Notes: generated from the sequence alone by a model not told the origin. A DNA stretch of 64,000 nt from Alphaproteobacteria bacterium (GCA_017629245.1 JAGBXO010000003.1:65897-129896); one strand, 5' to 3'. Shown: positions 40,869-56,304, counted from the stretch's first letter. Numbers and translations are program-made.

Positions 40869-42251
40869 ATGCAGAAATTATCACGCGCAACATTAATATT
40901 TTTAATATTCTTGAACGGTTATGTTAGTCTATCTTTAGAATTATCCATTCTGCGTCAGTTGTCATTTTATGTCGGGTCCAGTGCCGTTGTAACCAGTATT
41001 ATAATGGCAATATTTCTAGGGTTTATGTCACTGGGGTATTTTGTTGGCGAATCAGAACGCATAAACAATAACAGAATCAGAAATACTTTAAACGTCAGTT
41101 TTCTGATTATTGCCGCCCTGTCTGTCGTCGCGGCCAGTTTCCCATTAATCACAAATTATTTCGCATTAATGTATTCTGGTGGGCTTACATCTGGTGTGGT
41201 TCAGACATTTACTTATTCGCTGTTGTTTTTATCGGTTGGGCCATTTTTGTTTGGTTTTAATACAACATTACTGTCGCGCCAATTGCATTGTTATTCCGCA
41301 AAAAGCACCGGCTGTATCATGGCATGGGATACAATTGGGTCTGTGTTTGGCTCGATTGCAACAACATTATTGTTAATGCCATTTATGGGGGTAAATTACA
41401 CGGTTGTATTAATAACCGTCTTGTCCGTCATTGCGGGCCTGATTTTGCGTCGTCGTTGGTGGGTGTGGATTGTGTGTGCATTTGTGTTGGGGTTGTCTTT
41501 ATATATAAACAGTAATTCATATCAGAAAAATCGCCTGGGGATTTTGGTAAACAATGCAAATTCTACGATATCGGTTATTGATTATACAGATGCGCGCGTT
41601 TTGTATATGAATGGCCTGCCGATGTCTGTATATCGTCGTGACAAATCAGGCATGGCAGAATATATAGATTACCTGAATGAAAACTTTATAAACACAATGC
41701 CTGCGGATAAAAAGTATAAAATCTTGGTGCTGGGGGCAGGGGGCTTTACACTGGGGCTGAACGATACACATAACGATTATACATTCGTAGATATTGAGCG
41801 CACCCTGAAAGATGTATCTGAAAATCACTTTTTGAAACAGAAGTTAACACCAAACAAACGCTTTATTGTTGCCGATGCCAGCCAGTATTTAAAAAACACA
41901 CCCGAAATGTATGACTTTATATTGCTGGATGTGTATTCAAATTCGTACCAGGTGCCTGAATCCTTGATAACGGTTGAATTTATGCAGCGCCTGAAATCAC
42001 GCATTGCACCAAATGGGATTATTGCGTTGAATATGATTGTTTATCCAGAATTTGCAGATAAATATTCGCGCGTGTTTGATAATACTTTTCGCACGGTGTT
42101 CCCATATAACACATCGCGCCAGGTTATTGGCACCTTTTCCCCATGGCGAAACATAGATGGTGCGGCAAATGTTATCTATACATATTACAACATTGAAAAC
42201 GACGGTCGCGTTTATACGATAAATAAAACCCCGGTTATATACGACCGATAA
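40869..42251 (+). CDS. Polytopic membrane protein fused to a spermidine-synthase-like methyltransferase-fold domain
   Basis: The protein has about 7 N-terminal TM helices. The C-terminal KILVLGAGGFTLG...ILLDVYS resembles the spermidine synthase fold. The start was set at the internal Met (MQKLSRATL). Confidence 0.45.
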   Translation: MQKLSRATLIFLIFLNGYVSLSLELSILRQLSFYVGSSAVVTSIIMAIFLGFMSLGYFVGESERINNNRIRNTLNVSFLIIAALSVVAASFPLITNYFALMYSGGLTSGVVQTFTYSLLFLSVGPFLFGFNTTLLSRQLHCYSAKSTGCIMAWDTIGSVFGSIATTLLLMPFMGVNYTVVLITVLSVIAGLILRRRWWVWIVCAFVLGLSLYINSNSYQKNRLGILVNNANSTISVIDYTDARVLYMNGLPMSVYRRDKSGMAEYIDYLNENFINTMPADKKYKILVLGAGGFTLGLNDTHNDYTFVDIERTLKDVSENHFLKQKLTPNKRFIVADASQYLKNTPEMYDFILLDVYSNSYQVPESLITVEFMQRLKSRIAPNGIIALNMIVYPEFADKYSRVFDNTFRTVFPYNTSRQVIGTFSPWRNIDGAANVIYTYYNIENDGRVYTINKTPVIYDR

Positions 42252-42280
42252 AAAAAGGGGAGTGCCCCTTTTTTTTATTT
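42251..42280. terminator. Bidirectional terminator (A-run, GGGGAGTGCCCC hairpin, T-run)
   Basis: It lies between convergent genes, with an A-tract on one side and a T-tract on the other. Confidence 0.55.
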
Positions 42281-42868
42281 ACGCAGATTTTCTGCAACAA
42301 AATCCCAATTGACCAGATTGTCCAGAAAGTTATCTATAAAATCTGCCCGCTTGTTCTTATAGTCCAGATAGTATGCGTGTTCCCAGACATCCAGATTCAG
42401 CAACGGTTTCATATTATAAACTATTGGCGTGTCTGCATTTGCAGTGTTAATAATTTTCAGCCTGTCACCATCACGAACCAGCCATGTATATCCACTGCCA
42501 AACAGACTGGTTGCGGCGGACTTAAATTGTTCCTTAAAGTCTTCTTCGCTGCCAAATGCTGCGATTATTTCCACAGGCATTTGTGTTTCGCATTTTGGAC
42601 ACATTCCCTGAAAGAAAAAGTTATGGTTATAAATTTGCGCGGCGTTATCAAAAATCTTTTTTTCTGATGTCTTGCCCGCAGATTGCACAATAATTTCATC
42701 CAGTGATATTTCTTCGTACGGCGTATTTTCAATTAATTTATTCAGATTGTCTATATATGTCGCCACATGTTTGCCATGATGTGTTTCCAGTGTTTCTTGG
42801 GAAATATATGGCGCCAACGCGTCCGTCGCATATGGCAGTGGGAATTGTGTTATTGTGAACATTTGCAA
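42275..42868 (-). CDS. sodB: Fe/Mn superoxide dismutase
   Basis: The N-terminus FTITQFPLPYATDALAPYISQETLETHHGKHVATYIDNLN fits the family, as does the DVWEHAYYLDYKNKRADF metal-binding region. The product is 197 aa. Confidence 0.85.
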   Translation of the reverse strand: MQMFTITQFPLPYATDALAPYISQETLETHHGKHVATYIDNLNKLIENTPYEEISLDEIIVQSAGKTSEKKIFDNAAQIYNHNFFFQGMCPKCETQMPVEIIAAFGSEEDFKEQFKSAATSLFGSGYTWLVRDGDRLKIINTANADTPIVYNMKPLLNLDVWEHAYYLDYKNKRADFIDNFLDNLVNWDFVAENLRK

Positions 42869-42994
42869 TATCTCCTTTGCCTAAATTTTGCGTCAGCCTT
42901 ATACAAATATCAACAGGAATAAATTTTTTTATATAAAAGCACTTGCGCCCCCATTAAAATATTTTCTATAATCAAACCACGAAAGGAGTCTTAA

Positions 42995-43591
42995 ATGAAA
43001 AAATTATCAATATTATCTGCAATTTTTGGTTTATCATTTATCGGTGCAGCATCTGCGGCAAATATCACAATTTATCATTCGCCACATTGCCCGCATTGCC
43101 ATCATGCACGTGAATTTATTTCCAGTACATTGATTTATGAATACCCAGAATTGACCGTGACAGAAGTTAATGTTATGGAACCTGCAAACCAGGAACAATT
43201 CCAGGCCGCGTTAAAGAAATGTGAATTTGAATCTGGTGGTGTGCCAGTATTGGTAATTGGTGACAAATGTGAACAGGGCTATGCCGATTTTATGCAAGAT
43301 AGCCTGCGTCAGCATATCGAAGCAGACATGACAGATGAACAAAAGGCAGTCGCAGCTGAAAATAAAAAAGCAATGGCTGCTGATGCAGAAAAATTCAAAT
43401 CAGAACACGCAGACCGCATCAAAGCGATTTCTGAATTCTCGGTCGCTGCAGAAACTGCGCAGCAGCCTGTTGCAGAATCTGAAAAAAAAAATAGCCCTCA
43501 GGGCAGTACCGTTTGGTTCTGGGCGTTGTTGATTGTCTTGGTTGCAGGGCTGGGGTATGTTCTGGCGCGTGGTGACAACAAAAAGAAATAA
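42995..43591 (+). CDS. Exported thioredoxin-fold thiol:disulfide oxidoreductase with a C-terminal membrane anchor
   Basis: There is a signal peptide, a CPHC active-site motif (DsbA-like), GVPVLVIGDKC (cis-Pro region) and a C-terminal hydrophobic helix. Confidence 0.5.
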   Translation: MKKLSILSAIFGLSFIGAASAANITIYHSPHCPHCHHAREFISSTLIYEYPELTVTEVNVMEPANQEQFQAALKKCEFESGGVPVLVIGDKCEQGYADFMQDSLRQHIEADMTDEQKAVAAENKKAMAADAEKFKSEHADRIKAISEFSVAAETAQQPVAESEKKNSPQGSTVWFWALLIVLVAGLGYVLARGDNKKK

Positions 43592-43609
43592 TTATAAATC
43601 GGAATCGAT

Positions 43610-44356
43610 ATGTTTGATTTAACGATACTTGATTATATCTATGTAGGTGTCATTTTAGCATCTACAATATGGGCGACAATTCGTGGCGGTGTGTTTGAAA
43701 CCATTGCCACATTGTCGTGGGTTGTGGCGGCAATATCAGCGCGCTTTGCATCCCCTTGGCTGGATAAATTATTTCAGTCTTGGTTTGATTTGTCTGAATC
43801 AACTGTTGGTACATTGGTTGCGTCATACTTTATTGTGTTTTTTGCAGTGTTGATTTTGGTCGGGTTTGTAAATCAAAAGTTGCGCGATAAAATTCAAGAC
43901 AGCATAATGAATGTCACCGACAGAACATTGGGGGTAATATTTGGTATTATTCGTGGTGTTGTTGTTATGGGGGGCTTTTATTGGGGGGCATTATGGTATT
44001 ATTCTGATATGCCACATCTGCCACAATGGCTGTCCCAGGCGCGTACACGCCCAATTATGCAAATAACCGCGGTGAAATTGGACGAATGGTTCTTCCCTGG
44101 GCCTGAAAACAAATTGCTGGCGCGCGATATGGCAGGTACACGCCAGGCGATTGAGATCTATAATAACCTGATAAATCCCGCAATAGTATCGCATGCCAAG
44201 CAGACAGAAAAACAAGGCGAAACTGAAACCGGTTATAAATCGTCTGAACGTGCAGCACTAGAAAACCAATTGTTGCAAATTGAAACGGTTGCCCGCGTGG
44301 TAGAAGAACACGAATCTGCCGAACCTGATGACGCAGACGCGTCCGCGGATGAATAA
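43610..44356 (+). CDS. cvpA: CvpA-family membrane protein (colicin V production protein homolog)
   Basis: The N-terminus is MFDLTILDYIYVGVILASTIWATIRG. The protein has 4 TM helices and a length typical of CvpA. Confidence 0.65.
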   Translation: MFDLTILDYIYVGVILASTIWATIRGGVFETIATLSWVVAAISARFASPWLDKLFQSWFDLSESTVGTLVASYFIVFFAVLILVGFVNQKLRDKIQDSIMNVTDRTLGVIFGIIRGVVVMGGFYWGALWYYSDMPHLPQWLSQARTRPIMQITAVKLDEWFFPGPENKLLARDMAGTRQAIEIYNNLINPAIVSHAKQTEKQGETETGYKSSERAALENQLLQIETVARVVEEHESAEPDDADASADE

Positions 44357-44362
44357 TTTTTG

Positions 44363-44388
44363 CCCCGCAATTGCGGGGTGTTTTTTTA
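44363..44388 (+). terminator. Rho-independent terminator after cvpA
   Basis: The hairpin CCCCGCAATTGCGGGG is followed by T7. Confidence 0.65.
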
Positions 44389-44462
44389 TCGGAATTCATA
44401 CCTGCTGACATATATAGCCTTTTTAGTTATTATAATTGCGTATACTTTAACGGAGAGAGCCT

Positions 44463-44963
44463 ATGTTGTTACGTTCAAAAATATGTTTTACTGTCTTGGC
44501 CATTTATGAAATGGTCGCGGTATCCATGCTGCATTTTCAGCGTGTATGTGATGCGATATTTACGCCCATCTTTTGTGATGGTTGGTATCGTTATTTCTTG
44601 TTTTGTGTGATTGTTCCACTGCTTATCGGATTGATATTGATGTGGATACGCGAAATTGTTCGTGCGCATCGTCGTCGCAAATTCTTTCGTCGTGCTCGCA
44701 ATACGGTACGCAGTGTCATTTCAACAATCCGTGGTCGTGTGTCCGAAAATATAGATATGCGCGACATGGAAAAGATTGTGACAGCTGCTGTTCTGGTTGG
44801 AATTAAGCGCTATGCAGACAATCATCCAAACCTGCGTCGCAATGTAAATCGCATTATGGATATTGCCAATGGTGATGCTGAAATAGATATTATGGCAACC
44901 GATGAAGAGCAGACCGTACCATCGCACCCTAAGAAAGCGATTAAGAAAAAATTGAAAAAATAA
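44463..44963 (+). CDS. Hypothetical membrane-anchored basic protein (166 aa)
   Basis: The ORF has hydrophobic N-terminal helices and an Arg/Lys-rich segment. A terminator follows at 44984-45009. Confidence 0.4.
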   Translation: MLLRSKICFTVLAIYEMVAVSMLHFQRVCDAIFTPIFCDGWYRYFLFCVIVPLLIGLILMWIREIVRAHRRRKFFRRARNTVRSVISTIRGRVSENIDMRDMEKIVTAAVLVGIKRYADNHPNLRRNVNRIMDIANGDAEIDIMATDEEQTVPSHPKKAIKKKLKK

Positions 44964-44983
44964 GTTTCCTTTCTCACGCCCCA

Positions 44984-45009
44984 CACCGCCCAAACGGGCG
45001 GTGTTTTCT
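44984..45009. terminator. Bidirectional terminator of the ACCGCCC-N4-GGGCGGT family
   Basis: The hairpin CACCGCCCAAACGGGCGGTG is followed by TTTTCT. It separates convergent genes. Confidence 0.6.
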
Positions 45010-45469
45010 ATAACTGCCGAACTAAATCAAAGATGGTAAGTTTTGAAATCACGGCGTTCGGATTATTTAATTTGCTGTTCCTTATCTGGTCAAACGCAGG
45101 TCGCGCCAACCCCAGGAACTGCAATTTGCCATTGTTATATCGTCCTGATTCGAATGTTTTTGTGTCGGCGTTATACCAATGTGTGGTATTCATACCACTC
45201 AACGGTGTTCCGATTATGTTGTAATAATATCTGTTGCCATCATGCCATTGTGTATCGGACCATAATTTTAATATGTCACCCAGTCTTATTTTATACATCC
45301 CGACATACAGTCCGCCGACATACAGTCCTGGTATTTGAATGTTGCTAAATTCTGGCGTGCCCCAGATTTTATTACGGTTGGTATTTATCAGATTCAGATT
45401 TTCAAATAAGCATGAATTTGCACCTTTATCAGTGGTTGGTGCCACCACCACATGTTTTAATGTTGACAT
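45008..45469 (-). CDS. Hypothetical protein (153 aa)
   Basis: The start was set at MSTLKHVV, which has a strong RBS (AAGGAG) 8 nt upstream. The ORF extends further 5'. No recognisable domain was found. Confidence 0.4.
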   Translation of the reverse strand: MSTLKHVVVAPTTDKGANSCLFENLNLINTNRNKIWGTPEFSNIQIPGLYVGGLYVGMYKIRLGDILKLWSDTQWHDGNRYYYNIIGTPLSGMNTTHWYNADTKTFESGRYNNGKLQFLGLARPAFDQIRNSKLNNPNAVISKLTIFDLVRQL

Positions 45470-45573
45470 AAAATACTCCTTTTTTAGTCCATTAACGCAG
45501 GACAAGTTAGGATTTAAATCCGCGGTCGTTGCAACACTATTGTTACAATACATTTTTATACTATAGCTAAAAT

Positions 45574-45611
45574 GAAAAAAAATCAAATAAAAACGCACCG
45601 ATCGGTGCGTT
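45574..45611 (-). terminator. Rho-independent terminator after the 45620-46705 gene
   Basis: On the minus strand the hairpin AACGCACCGATCGGTGCGTT is followed by a T-rich run. Confidence 0.55.
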
Positions 45612-45619
45612 GGTTTTAA

Positions 45620-46705
45620 TTATTTGCCTCTTTCTTGTTCAATATGCTCTATTAATTGGCGCATATTGTTAATACCACTGCTGCCAATACCGATGCGCAG
45701 TCTTTTTGCAGCGTCTATCATTTGTTTGTTGTACTTTCTTTCTTGTTTCAGTTTTTCTGATTTTATTTCATTAGTCTTTGTTTGCTTTTCTATTTCTGCC
45801 TGCGCCTGTTCCAGTGCGTGTGTTGTCTGTGACAGTTTCTTGGATGTGGCGTTTAATTCCTTTTGTTGTTCTTCAACCTGAGATGTCAGTTCTACTATTT
45901 TCAGGCTTGCAGATTCTTCAACTGTTTCCAGGTATTTTGCTAAATCTTCTTCGCCATAATCTGGTGTTGTGTCATATATTTTCTGTATCTGATTGAACAG
46001 TTGTTCATCAATGTATTTTGCAGCCCCATACAATATATCTTTTCCGTTCTTAACTTTTTGTATGTCGGGTAATCTTTTTTTGCTTTCTTCTTTGATAATT
46101 TCTTTTACTTTTTTCTCCAGTGCGGAAAACAGCTTTTTTACTGTCGGGTCATCCTTGGGCAGTGCCATTATCGCCTGATAAAAATCGTATGGTACCACAT
46201 TAGGATTTTTAATTATTTTTGCCCATATTCCTTTTTTTATTGCGACTGTAAGTTCATTCGAGAATCTTGAAACCAAGAAACGTAAAGAGTCGTACTTAAC
46301 TTTTTCATCTTTTATATCACTGTCAATCAGTTTCAGAAAAGTGTTCAGCATTTCGATTGGCTTAACAGGGGCGTATTGAATATTTGCCATTGTTGAATCT
46401 ATGCACAATCTAGTCCCTATAATAATCTGTGCGCTTTCCAGGAAACTTCTGGCTTCTGGGTTATTTTGGTTTTTCTTGGCGTGTTGAATTTGTTTAAATA
46501 TTTCATCTAATTTTTTATCTGCTTCACTGTACTGGTTTTGTATCGTATATGCTGTATCTAGTTCATGTTGATTTAATATTGTGCCGGTCATTATATTATA
46601 CACTGTACCCAGTTCTTTGTTGCGTCCCATTCTATCTGTCGCCCGTCGGTTTAATAAAAATCCGGCCAATTCCTCCATCGTCATATATGATTTTTTTTCT
46701 GCCAT
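45620..46705 (-). CDS. Hypothetical protein with a long C-terminal coiled coil (361 aa)
   Basis: An RBS (AGGGAGAAA) precedes the ATG. The C-terminal ~90 aa contain heptad-rich Glu/Lys/Gln sequence. No known domain was recognised. Confidence 0.5.
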   Translation of the reverse strand: MAEKKSYMTMEELAGFLLNRRATDRMGRNKELGTVYNIMTGTILNQHELDTAYTIQNQYSEADKKLDEIFKQIQHAKKNQNNPEARSFLESAQIIIGTRLCIDSTMANIQYAPVKPIEMLNTFLKLIDSDIKDEKVKYDSLRFLVSRFSNELTVAIKKGIWAKIIKNPNVVPYDFYQAIMALPKDDPTVKKLFSALEKKVKEIIKEESKKRLPDIQKVKNGKDILYGAAKYIDEQLFNQIQKIYDTTPDYGEEDLAKYLETVEESASLKIVELTSQVEEQQKELNATSKKLSQTTHALEQAQAEIEKQTKTNEIKSEKLKQERKYNKQMIDAAKRLRIGIGSSGINNMRQLIEHIEQERGK

Positions 46706-46796
46706 ATTTTGTTTCTCCCTTTTTATTGTCTTGCTATGAATTGTAGCATAATTCAGGCGTTATTCCAAATAAATACCGCCCAGTCGGGCGGTGGGG

Positions 46797-47819
46797 TTAT
46801 TTTGCTTTTTCTATCCGTTTAATAATTACTTGATTTTGCAGCAGGCTTGCCTTTATCATTTGCTGTACGGCGGATGTATGTGATTCTGTATCGTTCAGTT
46901 TTGTTATAACATGATTTTGTAGTTCATAAACTCGTTTCATACTATCCAGTACATTATTCTTTGGCTGTGCCTTTGGCAACAGGGTTATTTTATCGTCTGG
47001 CTTCATATATTGAATTGCGTTACCGTTTTTTTGAACAAATATTCCGCCCAATCCTTTGTTGATATCATAGCAATGTTGTTGAACATATGGTACATCATAG
47101 AACGGGTTAGGTGTATATTGTTTAAAGATTGGTTGATATAAAACGGTCTTGTTTGTGCCATCAATATTCATAACAACTGGATGTACGGTCCTATTTATGC
47201 CTTTGGTCAGTGTGGCGGTTGCGCCACGATATCCAGTTGATGTTAATTTTGATAATCTGGGAAAGCCCAGTTTCCCACTAACCAAGCCATCGGTTGATGC
47301 ATTTGTGATTAAAATATCATTGAACCATACCTGGAACACGCATGGAGAATACAAAAATATATTTGTGTCATTTCCGACCAGTCCTAAACCATTGCCCATG
47401 TCTTTTACTCGTTCGATAATCAGCATACGGTCTTTGGCGCCAACGCGATCGTTTATATAAAAATTAGGATCCATTAAATCCAGTTTCTTCTGCAGTGTCA
47501 ACTGTCCCAACCATAATCCTACGCGCAACTTATCAAACCAGTCCATTAATGTGCTGATTTCTTGACCTGTCACAGATTTAGAATTCATCAGTTTTTCAAC
47601 CACAGCCTTGGCTTCACCTTCCAGTTTTGAATCTGCGTCATTGCATGCTTTACATGCCGGGAAGGTAAGTTTAGCAAATGTTATCTCATAATCTGTTGCG
47701 CCTGGTACGGTGCATACAGAATTATAGCGCCCCAGGTATTTGCTTAACCATTGTGGTATAACGTGTTCTTTGTTTTTTTGCTGCGGCTTGTTACCGCAAA
47801 AAATACACTTTTGTGCCAT
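46797..47819 (-). CDS. HNH-endonuclease-domain protein with an uncharacterised C-terminal domain
   Basis: The N-terminal CIFCGNK...KEHVIPQWLSKYLG...FPACKACND is the CxxC...EH(V)IP...CxxCN HNH/zinc-finger nuclease signature. The product is 340 aa. Confidence 0.5.
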   Translation of the reverse strand: MAQKCIFCGNKPQQKNKEHVIPQWLSKYLGRYNSVCTVPGATDYEITFAKLTFPACKACNDADSKLEGEAKAVVEKLMNSKSVTGQEISTLMDWFDKLRVGLWLGQLTLQKKLDLMDPNFYINDRVGAKDRMLIIERVKDMGNGLGLVGNDTNIFLYSPCVFQVWFNDILITNASTDGLVSGKLGFPRLSKLTSTGYRGATATLTKGINRTVHPVVMNIDGTNKTVLYQPIFKQYTPNPFYDVPYVQQHCYDINKGLGGIFVQKNGNAIQYMKPDDKITLLPKAQPKNNVLDSMKRVYELQNHVITKLNDTESHTSAVQQMIKASLLQNQVIIKRIEKAK

Positions 47820-47982
47820 AAAAAATCCTTTTAAAATATAAGTATATTATAGTTGACAAAATTCATTTTTCAACAACAAAAAATAGCTGAGTTATTACGG
47901 TTGTTGCTCTTTATATGTGTCAAAGACAGGGCGGCAATATGTATCTGTATAGTCGTTTCCAATCTGCTTTGTAAGTTTTTTA

Positions 47983-48888
47983 TTATTCAAACATTTCCAG
48001 TGGAATATCATATTCCTTGCAAAATTCATAAAAGAATTCAAGGAACGCTTGAACTTTTGGAGTTTTTACGGTCAGTGGATTCCCAATTCCCGTTAAAATA
48101 TACTCATAATCAAAATCGATGTTTGGAACCTCTACCAAGCGTTCATTTCGCATGGTGCACCATTCTGGCATCAAAGATATCCCTGCGCCATCAGATACCA
48201 ACTGATACAAAATAGAAGCAGAATCTGCTGTAACATTCAATCTTTTTGCTTTCTTTAATATAAAATTACATTCCGGCAGATGTAAAAATTTTTGACGAAT
48301 ACATAAATCAAAGTTCTCTAGCATGTCGGCCATATCGTGTGGTGTGCCGTGTTTGTTTAAATATTCGCGTGTTGTATAGAATTTAGTTTTTGTTTTAAAT
48401 TTGAATAATGAAACAGACCCCGGGATCTTTGACAAAGAGCGTATATCTATAATAGAAATATCCGGATTTGACATGTTCATATGGTGGTTGGTTAGAATGT
48501 CTAAACGAATTTTAGGATGTTTTGCATATAATTTATTTAACTCGGTAAATAATTTGCTGCCTGCAAAACCTTCTTCCGTCCAAATAGAAATGTGGCCCGT
48601 CAGTTCATCTGGTCCCGTAATATTATGTAGAATATTATCAAGTGCATTTGATATATTTTCAATATCTGCATATAATTGACGTGTTGTATTGGTTGGTACA
48701 CTGCCTGCGGAACTGCGTATCAACAATCGTGCTTTAAACCTGGATTCCAAATCTGAAATCATTTTTGACATATTAGAATGTTTTATGCCATTACGTTCGG
48801 CCGCTGCCTGAATTTGCCCCAAATCAATAACTTCCTTTAATGCTAACAACTCGCGTAAAAAAGCAATTTTTGTTTTAATAGTTGGCAT
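47983..48888 (-). CDS. LysR-family transcriptional regulator
   Basis: An N-terminal HTH-like segment (IAFLRELLALKEVIDLGQIQAAAERNGIKHSNMSKMISDLE) is followed by a roughly 200 aa effector-binding-like domain. The start was set at MPTIKTK. Confidence 0.55.
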   Translation of the reverse strand: MPTIKTKIAFLRELLALKEVIDLGQIQAAAERNGIKHSNMSKMISDLESRFKARLLIRSSAGSVPTNTTRQLYADIENISNALDNILHNITGPDELTGHISIWTEEGFAGSKLFTELNKLYAKHPKIRLDILTNHHMNMSNPDISIIDIRSLSKIPGSVSLFKFKTKTKFYTTREYLNKHGTPHDMADMLENFDLCIRQKFLHLPECNFILKKAKRLNVTADSASILYQLVSDGAGISLMPEWCTMRNERLVEVPNIDFDYEYILTGIGNPLTVKTPKVQAFLEFFYEFCKEYDIPLEMFE

Positions 48889-49140
48889 AATCTTCCTTTT
48901 TTGACAATGTTTCCCCAGGATACACCAGGAAAAAGTTCTAAACAATAGTTATTTTTATAGGAAAAAATATGTAAAAATCCGATCGTTTTTTTGTGAAAAA
49001 TCCTTGAAAAGTATAGTTTTGATGTCTTTCCAGTCCCTTTTTTATACATTGCCTGGCGTAAAAAGAGTATAAAACAAAACATAAAAACCTAGTCTATAAT
49101 TCCTTCGTGTCCAACAACAAATGAAACAAGGAGTTTTTAA

Positions 49141-49395
49141 ATGACACACGCAGATGTTTGGTTCGCTATTGATTCGTTCGCTAAAGATCACAATGTATCC
49201 TGTTCGGGACTTGCAAGACGTAGCGGATTAGACGCAACAACGTTTAATAAAAGTAAACGTTATTCAAAATATGGACAGCCTCGTTGGCCATCTACCAACA
49301 GTATTGCAAAGATATTGGAAAGTACTGGTGCTTCTCTTTATGACTTTACAAAATATTTTTCAACACCTTCATCTTCAGCGCAACAAGCGATATAA
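49141..49395 (+). CDS. CI/LexA-repressor-like HTH protein (N-terminal DNA-binding domain only; no S24 peptidase domain)
   Basis: VWFAIDSFAKDHNVSCSGLARRSGLDATTFNKSKRYSKYGQPRWPSTNSIAKILESTGASLYDF matches the N-domain of alphaproteobacterial phage-repressor/S24 family proteins. The ORF ends after 84 aa. Confidence 0.5.
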   Translation: MTHADVWFAIDSFAKDHNVSCSGLARRSGLDATTFNKSKRYSKYGQPRWPSTNSIAKILESTGASLYDFTKYFSTPSSSAQQAI

Positions 49396-49419
49396 TAATG
49401 CAGATAAAACAAATAAATC

Positions 49420-49442
49420 CCGCCCGATAGGGCGGTTTTTTA
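49420..49442 (+). terminator. Rho-independent terminator (CCGCCCGATAGGGCGG + T6)
   Basis: It is read directly from the sequence, 25 nt after the HTH gene stop. Confidence 0.65.
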
Positions 49443-49631
49443 TTGATATATCACAGTTTTTAGTTTTTTTTAGTGCATGGGGCAGAATTGGATGGATTTT
49501 TAAACTCTGGTTAAAATAAAAAACAACCGCACCCCAATAAAACTGTACCCAATACAAAAATCAAACGGGCAGAGAAATCTAAACAAAAAAACACACAGTT
49601 TGGTGTGTTTTTAAGCGGTTATCTCTTGTTA

Positions 49632-49725
49632 GGATACTAAGGCAAGTCTAAAGTTCCAGATTGCCAATAGTTTCAGACAGTTGGTTTCTAGGCCTGCATC
49701 ACATATCGCCTCGCATAGCATTTTT
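49632..49725. repeat. Repeat R, copy 1 (~94 bp; ~83% identical to 54191-54283)
   Basis: The two copies were aligned by eye and share CCAATAGTTTCAGACAGTTG...CTGCATCACA...CCTC.CATAGCATTTT. The repeat precedes the gene at 49850. Confidence 0.7.
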
Positions 49726-49849
49726 CCAAGTATTATTCAGTTTGTACACGTTTGTTTATTGCTTCGCTACACCAACATCATTATGTTCGCTTCATTTGAT
49801 TTGTTTATTTATTTGTGTTACAATATAGACAAATAAAAAAGGAGAAAAG

Positions 49850-50362
49850 ATGTTTAAAAAAGCTATCAACAAAGTTGAAACCATGAATCAGCTAGAGCAG
49901 ATGCAAAAAGAATTGTCTAAATTGGGTCCCGTGCCAAACGGTAAAGAAATATATGATTATGCAGTCAAATTTTTTAACGTAATTGTAAAGTTTCAAGATA
50001 ATTTTGCCTTGAATATTGATATGTTCCCTAAAACGGTAAAGTCAGCAGAGACTTTAAGACTACATATTACTAATGCTGGACGCGATGAATATGGTTGGGT
50101 TCGTGCCAAACGTGGCGAGCCTGTAACCTTGCATAATCTGTATCTGGGTAATGTATATGGCATTTGGACTGGTACGGCGGCATCGTTCAAAGAATCTTCT
50201 GATAAAGATACTCAACAAATTATTCAAAATCAGATAAAAAGTTTTATAAACAGTCATCGTGAACCTATGATAAGTCTGATTTCAGAAGTCCTGCAAAAAA
50301 ATAACAAACCAGATAATATTTTGGTAAAAGCAGCAATAAAAATGAAATCAAACTCAAAATAA
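49850..50362 (+). CDS. Hypothetical protein (170 aa)
   Basis: An RBS (AAAAGGAG) precedes the ATG. A terminator follows the stop (AAAGAAAGCACCATTTGGTGCTTTCTTT + T-run). No domain was recognised. Confidence 0.45.
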   Translation: MFKKAINKVETMNQLEQMQKELSKLGPVPNGKEIYDYAVKFFNVIVKFQDNFALNIDMFPKTVKSAETLRLHITNAGRDEYGWVRAKRGEPVTLHNLYLGNVYGIWTGTAASFKESSDKDTQQIIQNQIKSFINSHREPMISLISEVLQKNNKPDNILVKAAIKMKSNSK

Positions 50363-50417
50363 AAGAAAGCACCATTTGGTGCTTTCTTTTTAATGATTAC
50401 TCTTTGGTGTAAAAAGT

Positions 50418-50455
50418 TTTTTATTCCTACATCACACAACGCCTCACATAGCATT
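50418..50455. repeat. Repeat R, partial copy 3 (3' 37 bp)
   Basis: CTACATCACACAACGCCTCACATAGCATTTTAACAAG matches the 3' end of R1 (CTGCATCACATATCGCCTCGCATAGCATTTTTCCAAG). Confidence 0.55.
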
Positions 50456-50583
50456 TTAACAAGTTATTTGCACATTGTACATGTCTTTATAAACAAATTA
50501 CTTGGCAGTTTCCTGTAATTATTTAGCCCACAAATTATACCACAATGTATCACAATATGTTTATACGACAACTGTATTATTCG

Positions 50584-50607
50584 ACAAAAACCGCCCATAT
50601 GGGCGGT
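50584..50607 (-). terminator. Rho-independent terminator after the autotransporter gene (ACCGCCCATATGGGCGGT family)
   Basis: On the minus strand the hairpin is followed by TTTTT, directly after the autotransporter stop. Confidence 0.6.
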
Positions 50608-50620
50608 AGTGCCATAATTG

Positions 50621-53600
50621 TTAGAACACATATCTCATCGATAGTGTACCTGCGTGTGAAGTATAATCAGCGTGCCAATTAAAATCATAATTCACACCGA
50701 TTTGCAACCTGTCTATAACTTCGACAGATATACCGCATCCAAACTCAATCCCAAGTTCTCTGTCCAAATCATTGTCAATATATAACTGATTTGCATTTGG
50801 TAGTTGAATTAGTGTCTTTCCGCCATCTACCAATGCGTTATAGGTCGCATTAATGTATAAATTTTGATTTATAGACGTATTATTCACTTTTACAACATCT
50901 GTTAAGCCAACCCCTGCAACCAATGTCATAATATCGCTGTTAGTTTTATCGTGCTTAATCTTCAACGTGTCTGTATAATCATTCTGTGTGATATGGTACA
51001 CTCTAACGCCAGCATTTGGTATGATTGCAATATTGCGTTTGGCCGCCACATCCGTAAACATATGTCCAACGGACAATTGCAGCCCAAACGTATCTGTATC
51101 ATATGATGAATTTAGTGCACGATTCAGCAGATTCTGATTTTGTTGAAAATCAGACATTTCATACATCGCCATTGCGTTATATATCCAATTATCATGATTG
51201 TATTTACCATATGCAAAGAAATTATTGCTATCAACCTGACTATCTGTGACATTTGCGTGCATATTAGTTTTCGAAAAACTATACCCTAAGCCAACAGTTA
51301 AATTTTTTGATATACGACTATCTGCACCAATCATAACACCAAATCCATCCGCATCAAAAGAGATTTTATTATTATGTTTGAATGTTTGGTATAGACCACG
51401 CACCCATAAATCAGGCTGTACGTTATATATATCGCCACCAGAACGACCGTTAGCACTACTATTATCCATAAGCAATAATTGCAATGTATTAAATAGTGTG
51501 TCTGCATGTTGAATCAACATTGTCGTTGTTGTCGCTGACAAATCTCCAATATCACGCATTATAGCACCAATAGTATTATCTCCTAATTGGGCCATGCGAT
51601 TAATATCCTTGGCTACAGAATTAAAGTCTTCATTATTTTCAGATTGTGGCAACATCGCCATCAATATTGCCGCACCTGTTTCTGTAGTGTTAAGTGCATC
51701 TGCAACCTCCGATATGGATTTACGGTTATAAGAAATATTCAATACATTACCTGCATTGGTTATATCCATCGTAACATCGTAGATTGAATTATTTGACTGT
51801 ACAATATTCCAGTCCCCATCTGACAAATCAACACTATTTGCAATAGTGTGTGTTAATTGGCCCGATATAGTGCCATCAAATAAAACACCAACATTCAAAT
51901 TGTTTGTTCCCTGTAATGCGATATTGCCATCAACACTAATGCTATCAGATTGTGCATCAATATACATAGCCAATGTTGCTCCGTCTGACATATTTATATT
52001 GTTTCCAGAGACATTTGCACCATTAATATTTAAGGTCGCATTTTGTGCAATATTGATGGTGCCATCATTCCCCGTCATACCACCATTAATGTTTAACGTC
52101 GCATCTTGTGTCACATTGATAGTACCAGAATTAAAGATATCATTATCGTATACTGACGTACCAATTTGTGTCTTGTTGTTCATAAAATTATTTTGCCCAC
52201 GCATGGTTATTGTGCCAGAATTCCAAATCGCACCACCGCCTGTTAGTGTATCTTGTGAACCAATAACACCGTTATTTAAAAAGGTTGAATCTGTCATGGA
52301 AATTGTACCCATATTCCAGATTGCGCCACCTTGAGCAGTTCCTTGTTTTGCGTTGGCATAGTTTCCATTAAATGTCGCGGTCATATTGTTGATGTTTGCA
52401 ACCGCAGAGCCGTTATGTATCGCACCGCCCTGTGCCCACGATTTGCCATGCTTATTTTCTGCATAATTATCAATAAAATCACCAGACAATTCGCCAATTA
52501 CGCCGTATGAATATATTGCTCCACCCAATCCTGCAACCACATTGTCTGTATCCCAGTTTCCCGATGCATAGTTACCTCGGAACATTACATCCTGCATTGA
52601 TTTGACGGTTGTTGCAGCATTTGAAGCAGTATAAGACGTTGAATAAGCACCACCATATGCGACACCGTTACTATTTACTGCACGGTTTTCAATAAAATCA
52701 ACATTTTTTATCAGGTTAATTAATCCGATCGCACCATTATTCGTTGCAAAGGAATTCTTTATACCACCACCCATCGCGGGTGCATTTTTACTTTCTGTCT
52801 CTGCGACATTCCCTTGGAACAAAGAATTAGAAATTTCTCCGATTATGTTATAGTTGTCTAATGCTCCACCCGACGCATGACCTTCGGGTGCGTTTGTGCC
52901 AGGTTTATATGTTTTATTGTCGATAAATCGTGTATTTGTAATAACACCTATTTCAGAATACTGATTGTTGTCAATAGTTGTGCCGTGTCCACCGCCCTTG
53001 AAATTGGCCTGTGCTGTCATGACATTATCGATAAAATCTACATTTTCAATTCTACCTATTTTGGATGCATTATATATAATTGCACCGTGCGGAGCACTTT
53101 GTGCCGTTTCAAATCGATTGCCTGTAAAAACGGTATCCTTGATAGTAGCAATTTCACCAGCACCCAAATTTGAAATAAGACCACCCCATAAGTCATTTTT
53201 TGGAATAGATCCAACAAAATTATCATTGAACCTAGAGTTTGATATTTCTAAAATTTTACCTTTGTTCAAAATGGAGGCACCACCCCCGACTTCACCAGAA
53301 GACACAAATAATGTATTGTTCAATATCCCAACATTATCTAATGCCAATGTGCCATTATTTATAATCATACGTGGCGTAACGATATCAATTGCAGCCGCTG
53401 GATTGGTCCATGATGTAATATTTTTCAACACAACAGATTGAGATGCAGCAATATCTATATTGGCGGACACTTCAGAAGTGGTTGTAGACATATCCAACAC
53501 AACATTTGCATCCATTTCACTAAGTGCAGCTTTTAATGCCTCGAAAGACGTTAATGTATCGGTCGCATAGCATGGTGCTGCCATTATAGTCAATGCTGTA

Positions 53601-53629
53601 AACGGCATAACAATTCTTGCAATTTTCAT
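50621..53629 (-). CDS. Autotransporter with a Pmp-like GGAI-repeat passenger domain
   Basis: The signal peptide is MKIARIVMPFTALTIMAAPCYA. GGA[IL] repeats recur (GGAIYS, GGAIHN, GGAIWN, GGALDN). The C-terminal beta-barrel ends ...MRYVF. The product is 1002 aa. Confidence 0.75.
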   Translation of the reverse strand: MKIARIVMPFTALTIMAAPCYATDTLTSFEALKAALSEMDANVVLDMSTTTSEVSANIDIAASQSVVLKNITSWTNPAAAIDIVTPRMIINNGTLALDNVGILNNTLFVSSGEVGGGASILNKGKILEISNSRFNDNFVGSIPKNDLWGGLISNLGAGEIATIKDTVFTGNRFETAQSAPHGAIIYNASKIGRIENVDFIDNVMTAQANFKGGGHGTTIDNNQYSEIGVITNTRFIDNKTYKPGTNAPEGHASGGALDNYNIIGEISNSLFQGNVAETESKNAPAMGGGIKNSFATNNGAIGLINLIKNVDFIENRAVNSNGVAYGGAYSTSYTASNAATTVKSMQDVMFRGNYASGNWDTDNVVAGLGGAIYSYGVIGELSGDFIDNYAENKHGKSWAQGGAIHNGSAVANINNMTATFNGNYANAKQGTAQGGAIWNMGTISMTDSTFLNNGVIGSQDTLTGGGAIWNSGTITMRGQNNFMNNKTQIGTSVYDNDIFNSGTINVTQDATLNINGGMTGNDGTINIAQNATLNINGANVSGNNINMSDGATLAMYIDAQSDSISVDGNIALQGTNNLNVGVLFDGTISGQLTHTIANSVDLSDGDWNIVQSNNSIYDVTMDITNAGNVLNISYNRKSISEVADALNTTETGAAILMAMLPQSENNEDFNSVAKDINRMAQLGDNTIGAIMRDIGDLSATTTTMLIQHADTLFNTLQLLLMDNSSANGRSGGDIYNVQPDLWVRGLYQTFKHNNKISFDADGFGVMIGADSRISKNLTVGLGYSFSKTNMHANVTDSQVDSNNFFAYGKYNHDNWIYNAMAMYEMSDFQQNQNLLNRALNSSYDTDTFGLQLSVGHMFTDVAAKRNIAIIPNAGVRVYHITQNDYTDTLKIKHDKTNSDIMTLVAGVGLTDVVKVNNTSINQNLYINATYNALVDGGKTLIQLPNANQLYIDNDLDRELGIEFGCGISVEVIDRLQIGVNYDFNWHADYTSHAGTLSMRYVF

Positions 53630-54007
53630 CTCTTCTCCATTTTTTTATTTTTAATAACAGCCAATTGAATATTGGAGGTCTGGGAGTTAATAAATCAGAA
53701 CATTGTTGAACCCAAAGCCCCAAGTAGAATCCTATTGGATTTAGTTGATATTTTAACACCAATAGGAACAAAAGTCCAATAATGGACTGTTTTTTATTTC
53801 CAACATGAATATTCCGGTACAATGATTCAGGCGTATTCTGATCGTTTTTACCAATTTAACATTGTGTAATTTGGATTAGTCATCATTAAAGGTTAACTTG
53901 ATTTGCTTTAATAATGTTCTGATAGCATTTCTTTTCTGGGTTGTTTCTTGTTCACAGTTGTTTGCTTTATAATAAAACACGTTATTTCTTAGCCAGATAT
54001 TACCTAA

Positions 54008-54029
54008 TGCATCACAGTTTGCATCACAC
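54008..54029. promoter_or_regulatory. Tandem direct repeat TGCATCACAGTT-TGCATCACAC (copy 1 of 3)
   Basis: A 9 bp motif is repeated with 12 bp phasing, 167 bp upstream of the 17 bp att-like core at 54175. Confidence 0.5.
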
Positions 54030-54174
54030 TTTATCATGCTTTTACTCTTGTTTTTGTTGTCCGGTGCGTCAAAGGCTTGGAAAACTAACCTTTTTTGATG
54101 TGATGGCTAAAACTGAAATTGTCTGAAAATAATAAAAAAATCCAACAAAAGTGCTGGATTTCTAAGAAAAATTA

Positions 54175-54191
54175 CTGGTGCCGGTTGTCGG
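54175..54191. repeat. 17 bp att-like core CTGGTGCCGGTTGTCGG (identical to 56080-56096; the 3' end of a tRNA acceptor region)
   Basis: It is an exact 17/17 direct repeat of the core adjacent to the tRNA-Thr fragment near the integrase gene. Confidence 0.7.
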
Positions 54192-54283
54192 GATGTCAAG
54201 GCGAGTCCAAAGTCCAAGATTTCCAATAGTTTCAGACAGTTGATTTCTCAGTCTGCATCACACTTAGCCTCACATAGCATTTT
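54191..54283. repeat. Repeat R, copy 2
   Basis: See copy 1. It immediately follows the att-like core and precedes the gene at 54328. Confidence 0.7.
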
Positions 54284-54327
54284 GATAAAAAATATGATAA
54301 AATAAATGGGATAAAAAAGATTTACAA

Positions 54328-55104
54328 ATGAAATTATTGAATAAGTCTGAAATTTTAAGTGCCTTATCAAAACATCCCATTGGTCGAGGAACCGAGGCGA
54401 CTACATACGATGCTGGTCGCTATGTTGTGCGTGTGCCGCATACTGTAAAAATTGATAAAGCATTCAGGGAAAATCTATCCAACGGTACATACAACTATCA
54501 AAAGGTTGATAATATACACGGTCGCCGCAATTTTGGTCAGCCATTGTATAATTTAACAGACCCAATGTCCGGAACTGTGATGTTGTCTGTTTGTAAAAAG
54601 GTGGATGGAATTACTACAAACGATTTGGTCGAAGAACCATTGACGACAAAACAAAAATCCGATGCGATGGCTGTGGCAATTGAAAAGATGCGCATAATGG
54701 CATCTGCACCACAAAAATCTTATCGCAGGCTGGTTGATGATTTGAATCATCTGGCCGGCACAAACTTTACCATCGACCCGTGCGAGGGGAATATGTTGAT
54801 AAACCCAACCACTGGGCGGTTTTACATTATTGATTTGCGACCTGTTAAAAATGTACGCAATGTGGGTGATTTGATTTTGTTATTGCTGACAGATATTCCA
54901 GACATGCCTGATAATGCCGAGTATTTTGAACTGGAACAAAAGATTGTAAATAAACTGATGCGTGCGGCGCAGTCATGTGGTTTGTCTGTTCCGGAACAGT
55001 TAAAACTGAAACCGCGTGCATTAGAGGTTATAAAATCAGAGGCAGCACGCCAGTTGTATAAAAACAATTATCAGAATATCGCATTACATACGCATTCAAA
55101 ATAA
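54328..55104 (+). CDS. Hypothetical protein with weak protein-kinase-like motifs
   Basis: IGRGTEATTYDAGRYVVRV is Gly-rich-loop plus VAIK-like. NMLINPTTGRFYIIDL is catalytic-loop plus DFG-like. A terminator follows at 55107-55131. Confidence 0.4.
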   Translation: MKLLNKSEILSALSKHPIGRGTEATTYDAGRYVVRVPHTVKIDKAFRENLSNGTYNYQKVDNIHGRRNFGQPLYNLTDPMSGTVMLSVCKKVDGITTNDLVEEPLTTKQKSDAMAVAIEKMRIMASAPQKSYRRLVDDLNHLAGTNFTIDPCEGNMLINPTTGRFYIIDLRPVKNVRNVGDLILLLLTDIPDMPDNAEYFELEQKIVNKLMRAAQSCGLSVPEQLKLKPRALEVIKSEAARQLYKNNYQNIALHTHSK

Positions 55105-55106
55105 CT

Positions 55107-55131
55107 ACCGCCCAATTGGGCGGTGTTTTTA
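55107..55131 (+). terminator. Rho-independent terminator (ACCGCCCAATTGGGCGGT + T5)
   Basis: It is read directly from the sequence. Confidence 0.65.
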
Positions 55132-55136
55132 TTCGT

Positions 55137-55157
55137 GCATCACACTTTGCATCACAG
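55137..55157. promoter_or_regulatory. Tandem direct repeat TGCATCACACTT-TGCATCACAG (copy 2 of 3)
   Basis: It lies between the 3' ends of two convergent genes. Confidence 0.45.
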
Positions 55158-55160
55158 TTT

Positions 55161-55838
55161 TTACCGTTCGAATTTCATATTGTTTTTCAGCCATTCCCCA
55201 GCCTTGTTTAACTCATCAAGTGGCATATTTGATGTTTTATACTCTTGTTGAAATAATTCCTTGCGCAGTTTTTCTGGCATTGCGTCCAGCATTGCTTGCT
55301 GGTCGCCTCTTATATATGCGTCTACAACTGCCTGCAAAGCATGTCCGTGTTCTCGCAACAAGCTCATAAAAGCTCTCGGTAATACGTCAGACCCGATATA
55401 CCCCCCGTCTTTATACCCATGTTTTTGTGCAATTGCATGCGGATGCAAACCGTTTGGTGCCATGCGACAAATGCATCTGTTTCGAATTGAGTTTACAGGT
55501 TTGTGTTGAAATGCTTTATATTTGCTAAGCTCGTTGTCTGTTATGTTTGCGCCTATATAGTCCAGAATCATGTCTTTTGCAGGTTGGAACTTTTTTTCCT
55601 CTGGTTGATATGAATCAAAAATATAATCAACAAATTTAGCCAGTAACTTTGTTAGTTTTGGATTGTTATACGACATGATAACTTGTTCATAAATTTCCGG
55701 CTTAAAATAGCCAGAAGCGGAATATATCAGTCCAACTTTTGGAAATATTTTTTTAGTTTTGTTAAGTTTATCCGCGAAATCCTTCAAGGATATGATATTT
55801 TCCGTGCCTATTGAAAGCTTATTTTTTTTATCGTTCAT
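55161..55838 (-). CDS. Hypothetical protein (225 aa)
   Basis: The ORF begins MNDKKNKLSIG.... No domain was recognised. Confidence 0.45.
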   Translation of the reverse strand: MNDKKNKLSIGTENIISLKDFADKLNKTKKIFPKVGLIYSASGYFKPEIYEQVIMSYNNPKLTKLLAKFVDYIFDSYQPEEKKFQPAKDMILDYIGANITDNELSKYKAFQHKPVNSIRNRCICRMAPNGLHPHAIAQKHGYKDGGYIGSDVLPRAFMSLLREHGHALQAVVDAYIRGDQQAMLDAMPEKLRKELFQQEYKTSNMPLDELNKAGEWLKNNMKFER

Positions 55839-55899
55839 ATTTAATACTCCTATGTATATCCATGCACTAATTTTTTTATTTTATGTAACTATACCACAC

Positions 55900-55921
55900 C
55901 GCATCACTGTTTGCATCACAG
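55900..55921. promoter_or_regulatory. Tandem direct repeat CGCATCACTGTT-TGCATCACAG (copy 3 of 3)
   Basis: It lies 180 bp before the att core at 56080 and about 60 bp upstream of the minus-strand gene start at 55838. Confidence 0.5.
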
Positions 55922-56079
55922 TTTTTGGTGTTTTGGGGTCGTGGGGCGATATTAGGTTGGAATTGCACACCCCGAATAAAATAAAAACTATCTGCCCCGC
56001 AATAAAATTACGATTGGTGCAAAACTCAAAAGAGCAGGAAAACCCAACGAAAAAACGCACCATTTGGTGCATTTTAATT

Positions 56080-56125
56080 CTGGTGCCGGTTGTCGGACTT
56101 GAGCCAACGACCTACTGATTACAAA
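56080..56125 (-). other. tRNA-Thr(UGU)-like 3'-half fragment (anticodon loop through CCA) plus the 17 bp att core; no 5' half
   Basis: The reverse complement TTTGTAA-TCAGT-AGGTC-GTTGG-CTCAAGT-CCGAC-AACCGGC-A-CCA has an anticodon loop (TGT), a 3' anticodon stem, a variable loop, a T-arm and an acceptor 3' strand. The expected 5' partners (ACTGA, GCCGGTT) are absent upstream. Confidence 0.65.
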
Positions 56126-56226
56126 CCGCCCAAACGAGTGTTGAATAACGTTTGTCAACGTTGAATTTTGCTTAGTATTCTGGGCTTTACAGCGGATTTT
56201 AAATTTATTATACTTAAATAAAAATC

Positions 56227-56279: not shown

Positions 56280-56304
56280 TGGATGAAAAAGGCATCTGAA
56301 AAAT

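Follow-up and report, generated by a model that had tools for sequence, protein, structure and literature searches.

The window analysed here is a stretch of 64 kb (64,000 nucleotides; JAGBXO010000003.1:65897-129896) from the genome of a Candidatus Enterousia-like gut alphaproteobacterium of the order Rs-D84, in which genomes are mostly smaller than 1 Mb (PMC12306168). Our subject is a variable stretch of this window, at 44.4-49.4 kb, and in particular a gene on its minus strand that encodes a protein of 340 amino acids (aa) with an HNH nuclease signature. An initial annotation of the window had joined this gene with its two downstream neighbours, of 361 and 153 aa, in a candidate novel defence module. 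We find that the HNH gene is single, self-contained, and accessory, and that it evolves rapidly under purifying selection. On its own, the HNH protein is a credible candidate for a stand-alone defence nuclease, as yet unannotated, whereas the three-gene module is not supported. The genes and features of the region are as follows, in coordinates of the window.

46797..47819, minus strand: HNH gene, the core feature; open reading frame (ORF) of 340 aa with a predicted N-terminal zinc-type His-Me finger and a conserved C-terminal domain.
47846..47873, minus strand: promoter-like site of the HNH gene, sigma-70-type TTGAAA-16-TATAAT with 11/12 matches; a consensus match only.
46775..46792, minus strand: hairpin terminator directly 3' of the HNH stop codon, ACCGCCC-N4-GGGCGGT.
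45620..46705, minus strand: 361-aa gene, a near-orphan whose C-terminal third is rich in E, K, and Q; it adjoins the HNH gene but is not its partner.
45592..45611, minus strand: hairpin terminator 3' of the 361-aa gene, from the hairpin search.
45008..45469, minus strand: 153-aa gene of a small clade-restricted family; also a neighbour and not a partner of the HNH gene.
44983..45004, both strands: bidirectional terminator hairpin, common to the convergent 153-aa and 166-aa genes, from the hairpin search.
44463..44963, plus strand: p166, encoding a predicted membrane protein of 166 aa; together with cvpA it is one conserved border of the slot, and it adjoins cvpA in 48 loci.
43610..44356, plus strand: cvpA, the core gene that serves as the slot's conserved anchor (Pfam Colicin_V, E 7e-23; synteny in 49 loci).
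47983..48888, minus strand: LysR-family regulator (Pfam HTH_1, LysR_substrate), one half of the divergent pair at the slot's other border.
49141..49395, plus strand: 84-aa Cro/CI-type helix-turn-helix (HTH) protein, homologous to the N-terminal domain of S24 regulators, the other half of that pair.

The five ORFs of the initial annotation (the 340-, 361-, and 153-aa genes, the LysR gene, and the 84-aa gene) were all found in place, and the ATG start of the 153-aa gene agrees with the N-termini of 28 homologues. For the three minus-strand genes, Shine-Dalgarno sequences (AAGGA, GGGAG, and AGGAG) are seen, and a G+C-rich hairpin with a T-run lies 3' of each (46792-46775, 45611-45592, and 45004-44983), as expected if each gene has its own ribosome-binding site (RBS) and its own terminator. 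The region is flanked on one side by sodB, a glutaredoxin-like gene (grx), cvpA, and the gene for the 166-aa membrane protein, which verifies the core genes sodB and cvpA named earlier and adds grx to them. A 170-aa ORF and a 1002-aa autotransporter-like ORF lie on the other side.

The ratio of nonsynonymous to synonymous substitution rates (dN/dS) was computed for the window genes against their orthologues in L013; such L-numbers are the locus labels used in this analysis. The values, 0.15 for the HNH gene, 0.10 for the 361-aa gene, and 0.12 for the 153-aa gene, show purifying selection on all three, which are therefore genuine coding genes. The dS values of the slot genes (45008-47819) against L013 are 0.58-0.88, compared with 0.30-0.51 for the core genes sodB, grx, and cvpA (42275-44356). 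The slot genes may therefore have recombined with more distant lineages or be under weaker constraint on codon use.

The signature reported for the 340-aa protein is present as C5xxC8, E18H19, and C56xxC59N60, and it is the sole motif of this kind in the 64-kb window. A word-indexed search found 223 relatives, all full length, and showed that an NCBI metagenome-assembled genome labelled 'Alphaproteobacteria bacterium' encodes the identical protein; a profile search of 1.84 billion cluster representatives (50% identity) found 575 at E<=1e-30 and 2,021 at E<=1e-3. Nearly all members are 340-400 aa long, and none has a precomputed Pfam domain. Five longer homologues were considered as domain fusions, but their extra N-terminal residues, judged by eye, look like upstream read-through. 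The family occurs in Alpha- and Gammaproteobacteria, Fibrobacterota, Nitrospirota, Bdellovibrionota, and other groups, and on plasmids, in prophages, and in phages.

An alignment of 48 diverse family sequences, with a mean column identity of 37%, has 24 invariant positions. Those in the N-terminal 80 residues include E18, H19, P22, W24, L25, P54, C59, N60, and E67, and C5, C8, and C56 are nearly invariant. The family signature is thus C-x2-C, nine residues, EH, about 36 residues, and C-x2-C-N. Invariant positions elsewhere include W94, D96, K97, R99, G101, R125, D130, R131, G185, P187, P214, Q229, G256, and G258.

Residues 5-25 of the window protein match positions 1-23 of the 56 positions of the Pfam HNH_5 model (PF14279), and a subthreshold match to this model is found in 39 of the 48 aligned members, with a best E of 6e-4. 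The alignment is likely only partial because the spacing between EH and the second CxxC is about 36 residues in the family vs. 15 in the HNH_5 protein of locus L106. With hhalign, the whole CxxC..EH..CxxCN motif aligns to the Septu nuclease PtuB (E 1.5e-4), taken from locus L098, where PADLOC identifies it at E 9e-114, and the motif also aligns to the L106 HNH_5 protein. The AlphaFold model of the window protein is single and compact, with a predicted local distance difference test score (pLDDT) of 91.3 and a predicted template modelling score (pTM) of 0.91. It has strands at 17-19 and 52-54 and a helix at 57-78, followed by a mixed alpha/beta body and two long C-terminal helices. In this model, the order strand-strand-helix fits a beta-beta-alpha-metal core, and the parts of the catalytic and zinc motif are all found: a CxxC, an (D/E)H on a strand, and a CxxC(N/H) at the start of a helix. 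We infer from the motif and its alignments that the N-terminal 80 residues or so form a zinc-stabilised His-Me finger of the HNH_5/PtuB type, a predicted nuclease. By analogy with T4 endonuclease VII (D40/H41/N62), E18, H19, and N60 are probably catalytic and metal-binding residues.

What, then, is the remainder of the protein? The model has no Foldseek match in the PDB or in BFVD, and a search of the PDB with the family profile gave nothing even at E<=10. The C-terminal domain of about 260 aa is thus conserved in the family and confidently modelled by AlphaFold, with no match among solved structures in these searches. A search of PADLOC-DB v2 with the window protein and four diverse homologues found no family at E<=0.1, and in the literature on PF14279/HNH_5 and defence we found no description of this family. 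A survey of His-Me finger nucleases lists an uncharacterised HNH_5 'group 8' without discussing it (PMC5714182).

The genomic setting of the gene was examined in two samples. We gathered 91 loci with an HNH homologue, searched each of them with every protein of the window region, and clustered all their ORFs; this sample is conditioned on the presence of the HNH gene. The second sample is anchored on cvpA and is not selected for the HNH gene; about a dozen of its loci have enough downstream sequence to be informative. The great majority of the HNH-related loci come from Candidatus Enterousia and from other Alphaproteobacteria of the gut and rumen. Species-representative genomes gave at least 131 matches, and among the 80 listed, most are Rs-D84-type gut alphaproteobacteria. 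One locus labelled Bacteroides fragilis, L034 (CAVGNU010000013.1), has the Rs-D84 gene order grx-cvpA-p166-HNH-U32, with a cvpA 74% identical to that of the window, and is probably a mis-binned alphaproteobacterial contig.

In about 50 loci of the HNH-selected sample, the HNH gene adjoins grx-cvpA-p166, in the orders cvpA>HNH>p166 and cvpA>p166>HNH and in an inverted form. This context spans lineages from Enterousia to the rumen, with cvpA 63-67% identical. These loci had suggested a near-universal core gene of the clade, an idea that the cvpA-anchored sample overturned: the HNH gene is present in L109, L110, and L117, and it is absent within 10 kb in L113, L115, L116, L125, and L133. In the rumen lineages, the empty site reads p166, tRNA-Thr(UGU), U32 peptidase. 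In filled sites, of rumen and other Rs-D84 lineages, the HNH cassette occupies precisely the interval from p166 to the 3' end of the tRNA-Thr(UGU) gene (empty in L118, L125, and L127; filled in L035, L078, L083, L086, and L089; the tRNA gene is at L125:11253-11328 and L078:11061-11136). Upstream of the HNH genes of L078 and L086 are promoter-like sites, TTGACA-17-TATTAT. An integrase-mediated islet was considered for the cassette and rejected, since a search for att-like direct repeats around the cassette beside tRNA-Thr gave none; no integrase was found there either.

The closest relative in the cvpA-anchored sample is L106, with cvpA 86% and LysR 93% identical to those of the window. In the slot that corresponds to 45000-47980 of the window, between p166 and LysR, L106 has a different protein, of 396 aa (L106:11901-13091, plus strand). 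It is a bona fide HNH_5 protein (43.5 bits vs. a gathering threshold of 27.5; E 3e-11), and its C-terminus is unrelated to that of the window protein. Thus, the slot exchanges different HNH_5-type genes. Furthermore, the HNH protein diverges much faster than its surroundings. Its identity is 64-78% where that of cvpA is at least 95%, and it falls to 40% where that of cvpA is 85%. The correlation of pairwise identities is 0.41-0.55 between the HNH gene and its flanks, vs. 0.77-0.88 among the flanking genes, and the HNH genes form discrete allele classes that overlap in flank similarity. The HNH gene is therefore a long-lived accessory occupant of a slot bordered by cvpA-p166 on one side and by the LysR/HTH pair or tRNA-Thr/U32 peptidase on the other.

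These results bear on the possibility that the gene is a housekeeping nuclease of the lineage, an old Rs-D84 gene for DNA repair, recombination, or turnover of nucleic acids that has been passed on vertically beside cvpA and lost repeatedly in genome reduction. The constancy of the grx-cvpA-p166 context from Enterousia to the rumen lineages, the predominance of Rs-D84-type genomes among the listed species representatives, the purifying selection, and the lack of mobility genes and att repeats would all agree with such a gene. However, most cvpA-anchored loci lack it, L106 has an unrelated HNH_5 protein in its place, its divergence is far above that of its flanks and falls into discrete allele classes, and homologues are found beside defence genes on plasmids, in an integrative conjugative element, in prophages, and in phages. 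We consider a housekeeping role improbable and rank it after the explanation that follows.

Presence/absence polymorphism at one site between conserved genes is among the features by which homing endonucleases are recognised. Free-standing HNH and GIY-YIG genes of phages spread by homing, and a selfish endonuclease of this kind would cut alleles that lack the cassette beside cvpA/p166 or tRNA-Thr and be copied into them by repair. This is the main rival to a defence function, though in our judgement an unlikely one. The insertion of a stand-alone HNH gene, promoter and terminator included, between conserved genes, empty and filled sites that are clean and free of flanking repeats and integrase, variation of the cassette's orientation and exact position within the slot, the different HNH_5 gene of L106, and an HNH phylogeny partly discordant with the flanks all argue for homing, as does a homologue found between structural genes of an SU10-like phage. 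Homing enzymes diversify their DNA-binding parts, however, and here the whole 340-aa protein, with 18 invariant residues in its C-terminal part, is conserved across phyla and unrelated contexts. Pfam scans of the 48 aligned members show no NUMOD, IENR, or HTH modules, purifying selection (dN/dS 0.15) acts on the gene at a chromosomal site that is fixed, and its contexts outside the clade share no neighbour gene that could carry a target site.

Those outside contexts are varied. The proteins encoded by the neighbouring genes, 149 in all, were scanned against PADLOC as one batch, and the matches were then traced protein by protein. In a Vibrio fluvialis prophage, the homologue lies between the integrase and the S24 repressor, beside two RelA_SpoT (toxSAS) genes and a Panacea-domain gene. 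It adjoins an AbiJ_NTD4 protein in a Fibrobacterota genome and, in Pseudomonas sp. H9, a PDC-S02 candidate. Its neighbours on a Rhizobium rhizogenes plasmid are a DUF262 protein and a PDC-S35/TIR protein, and on an Agrobacterium pusense plasmid, it lies between a HEPN-nucleotidyltransferase gene and a methyltransferase/restriction-endonuclease pair. A Vibrio pectenicida plasmid has it as cargo among conjugation genes of the integrative-conjugative-element type, with an Abi family protein about 6 kb away, and on Legionella plasmids it is truncated by IS256.

Homologues were found on 10 viral contigs of IMG/VR, and a tblastn search of 50,697 GenBank phage records gave no match. In the SU10-like phage, the gene lies between the capsid/metallophosphatase genes and the adaptor gene. 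In another viral contig, which has a lambdoid-type antiterminator Q (L098:8001-11897), it is the gene immediately upstream of Q and adjoins a complete Septu system (PADLOC: PtuA, E 2.9e-192; PtuB, E 9.4e-114). The family thus repeatedly adjoins defence systems outside the clade. No neighbour is common to these outside contexts, and none is conserved across the 91 loci together with the plasmid and viral loci. On a pig-gut contig, a 385-aa gene with a C-terminal PF01844 HNH domain (L141:5797-6951, plus strand; E 4e-5) ends 46 bp upstream of a family member, an arrangement that could be a two-nuclease pair or another multi-nuclease slot.

In Vibrio fluvialis, the homologue is flanked by ORFs of 136 and 121 aa (L002:5446-5853 and 7237-7599), neither of which has a Pfam match; all three contigs have the 121-aa ORF, and both of those that extend far enough upstream have the 136-aa ORF. 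Might the nuclease be a toxin? It would then be either a secreted, colicin-like HNH DNase or the toxic member of an addiction or toxin-antitoxin pair. HNH DNases do serve as warheads of bacteriocins and polymorphic toxins (PMC5714182), and small ORFs such as those of Vibrio fluvialis, or one of 92 aa in L010, could be read as partner genes. Against this, no conserved small immunity gene adjoins the HNH gene across the loci, no signal peptide or delivery domain was seen by eye in the window protein and its aligned homologues, and the catalytic domain is N-terminal, unlike the architectures of colicins and polymorphic toxins. A toxin is, in our estimation, very improbable.

The comparative data also bear on the first interpretation of the locus, in which the HNH protein would form one defence or abortive-infection system with the 361-aa coiled-coil protein and the 153-aa protein, under the control of LysR and the CI-like HTH protein. 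The three genes do stand next to one another on a single strand, in the window as in L013, and all are uncharacterised and under purifying selection. However, of the 91 HNH loci, L013 is the only one that also has the 361-aa gene, and the 153-aa gene is confined to the closest relatives, L008, L012, and L013. What lies between the HNH and 153-aa genes varies too, and in the next-closest relatives it is swapped or missing. The window and L013 have the 361-aa gene there; L008 has an amine-oxidase-like gene together with an unrelated 343-aa gene, and L012 has no gene at this place. Each gene is followed by a terminator, and the HNH gene is preceded by a near-consensus promoter of its own.

Both neighbours, furthermore, have homologues elsewhere without an HNH gene. 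Only four homologue clusters of the 361-aa protein were found in 5.8 billion sequences, and a 39%-identical homologue adjoins frr-uppS-cdsA-rseP-bamA, on a contig whose examined 7 kb include no HNH gene. Residues 251-350 of this protein are rich in E, K, and Q, and the only matches of this part are weak ones to coiled-coil proteins. The 153-aa protein has 32 homologue clusters, all restricted to the clade, and a 56%-identical homologue adjoins an ABC-F ATPase gene and hisS, without an HNH gene. Its AlphaFold model (pLDDT 90.7) has no structural match in the PDB. Neither the 361-aa nor the 153-aa protein belongs to a significant family in Pfam, NCBIfam, PHROGs, or PADLOC, and single-sequence searches of the PDB yielded no useful match for the 84-aa and 361-aa proteins. 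A PADLOC scan, which had been recommended, gave no match for any gene of the region.

Co-occurrence of the three genes across genomes thus fails, and the outcome named in advance as a refutation of the module, that its genes never co-occur elsewhere, is essentially what we observe. Adjacency in one genome suggested a three-gene system, and the comparative data do not support it. We regard it as the least probable of the explanations considered here; both this system and a toxin are less likely than homing or a housekeeping role. The 361-aa and 153-aa genes are other cargo of the slot and, like the LysR and 84-aa HTH genes, they are independent occupants or borders of it and not components of a system.

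The identities of the two regulators themselves were confirmed. Pfam HTH_1 (E 2.8e-11) and LysR_substrate (E 3.8e-8) both exceed their gathering scores in the LysR protein, and the 84-aa protein matches only the N-terminal part of larger regulators, as expected of an HTH domain without the S24 peptidase. It is 50-60% identical to the N-terminal part of Hyphomicrobiales regulators of 210-218 aa, whose C-terminal half is Peptidase_S24 (L155:1498-2130 and L156:1498-2154; E 2.7e-13 and 5e-26). Its Rs-D84 homologues, 23 in 20 loci, are all of 78-102 aa, so the loss of the peptidase is old and not a truncation specific to this locus. Some HTH-only paralogues in Rs-D84 adjoin Slam-like and autotransporter genes. 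The proposal that these proteins are the module's own regulators is not supported. They are conserved independently of it as a divergent pair, which recurs in L016, L019, L021, L039, L043, L044, L049, L052, L074, and L106 at distances from the HNH gene that vary between loci.

Several further features of the window deserve mention. Terminator-like sites are more numerous in the region than in shuffled sequence (15 vs. 4.3 expected), and the ACCGCCC-N4-GGGCGGT terminator family pointed out earlier has 6 copies in the window vs. 0 expected. The copies are at 10264, 44985, 46775, 49419, 50590, and 55107, five of the six within the variable 44.9-55.2 kb. A second family of near-identical hairpins, AACGCACC-N4-GGTGCGTT, occurs at 45588, 49586, 50362, and 56050. 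An intergenic repeat of about 99 nucleotides is found at 49626-49724 and 54185-54283 (82% identity), with a partial third copy at 50418-50491, and a reiterated GCATCACA..TTTGCATCACA motif (54009, 54255, 55137, and 55901) precedes the 170-aa ORF, the autotransporter gene, and a 258-aa ORF. This set of repeats and motifs may be what the initial annotation called an att-junction array; its appearance is that of a shared element, regulatory or intergenic. No RNA gene was found at E<=0.1 when 42000-56500 was scanned with Rfam, and a retron-like or other known RNA partner is therefore unlikely.

What is the function of the HNH gene? We hold with moderate confidence that it is a single-gene nuclease cassette, directed most likely against invading DNA such as that of phages and plasmids. 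We infer its nuclease activity, target, and role in defence; it is a candidate for defence because of its accessory spread, its fast evolution, its replacement in the slot by an HNH_5 gene, and its defence neighbours outside the clade. The gene would be expressed as a self-contained cassette from its own promoter, RBS, and terminator. In the protein, zinc would be held by the two CxxC pairs, and the general base and metal ligands would come from E18-H19, on the first strand, and N60/E67, on the helix that follows. The His-Me finger is predicted to pack against the C-terminal domain of about 260 residues, whose conserved positions (W94, D96, K97, R99, R125, D130, R131, Y228-Q229-P230, and G256xG258) may serve in substrate recognition or in restraint of the nuclease. 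The protein would act alone as a DNA nuclease and would attack or exclude phage or plasmid DNA, in the manner of modification-dependent HNH restriction enzymes or of nuclease effectors that carry a sensor.

A more specific proposal, which we offer tentatively and consider possible rather than probable, is that of a single-protein anti-phage or anti-plasmid nuclease in which the C-terminal domain, of a fold absent so far from solved structures, would respond to a cue of infection or a feature of the DNA and thereby license the PtuB-type finger. This would be a 'Septu without an ATPase' and among the few immune genes that gut symbionts with genomes below 1 Mb retain, at a dedicated slot that exchanges HNH_5 genes.

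Several points weigh against a defence nuclease. The window protein misses the gathering threshold of Pfam HNH_5 (15.2 vs. 27.5 bits; E 0.021), it has no significant model in Pfam, NCBIfam, PHROGs, or PADLOC, and the probability that hhalign gives for the alignment to PtuB is 51%. A recognised or candidate defence gene lies within about 6.5 kb in about 8 of about 17 outside loci, and this is a raw tally without a matched control. The window itself has no recognised defence gene nearby, and the HNH gene is surrounded by housekeeping genes of a reduced genome. The occurrence of one slot across the whole order also fits an old, vertically inherited, and often lost gene of the lineage. Finally, a lone nuclease would need some means of sparing the host chromosome.

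If the defence reading is correct, the family would be a compact, single-gene defence system of about 1 kb, represented by about 575 clusters and missed by PADLOC, the one catalogue tested. Its C-terminal domain could be a new recognition or regulatory module. Known defence systems are reported to have a low prevalence in Enterousia (bioRxiv 10.1101/2024.04.04.588093), and a system of this kind would help to explain how Enterousia, with genomes below 1 Mb and few known defence systems, cope with phages.

Among known systems, Septu is alike in the catalytic part. PtuB, an HNH nuclease that works with the ATPase PtuA, has the same CxxC..EH..CxxCN type of finger, and one family member adjoins a complete Septu (L098), which is a separate system. 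However, no PtuA-like ATPase, of the AAA15/21 type, is found by PADLOC in the window or conserved beside the family, PtuB lacks the family's C-terminal domain of about 260 aa, and no PADLOC model of PtuB matches the family. The Pfam HNH_5 proteins, 'group 8' included (PMC5714182), share the N-terminal motif and the zinc cysteines; the family differs from them in its longer EH-CxxC spacing and in a C-terminal domain unrelated to that of the L106 HNH_5 protein.

A type II restriction-modification system finds no counterpart here: the ORFs between 42995 and 50362, which were scanned with Pfam, include no methyltransferase, and no methyltransferase cluster is conserved beside the family. The free-standing HNH homing endonucleases of phages, such as the T4 Mob proteins and I-HmuI-like enzymes, resemble the HNH gene as intergenic single-gene cassettes with presence/absence polymorphism and an occurrence among phage structural genes. 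They differ from it in that the C-terminal domain of the family is conserved across contexts, with no NUMOD or HTH module, and in that the gene has been maintained for long on the chromosome.

McrA is a stand-alone, modification-dependent (type IV) HNH restriction enzyme. Enzymes of this type are likewise encoded by a single gene without a methyltransferase partner, combine an HNH domain with a second domain, and lie at prophage and plasmid sites among restriction genes. Foldseek detected no known modified-base reader fold in the model of the HNH protein, and the order of the domains is reversed, since HNH is N-terminal in the family. An HNH nuclease as a stand-alone accessory or defence gene is of a known kind; what is new is the accessory domain of this family, which lies outside the annotation of Pfam, NCBIfam, PHROGs, and PADLOC v2.

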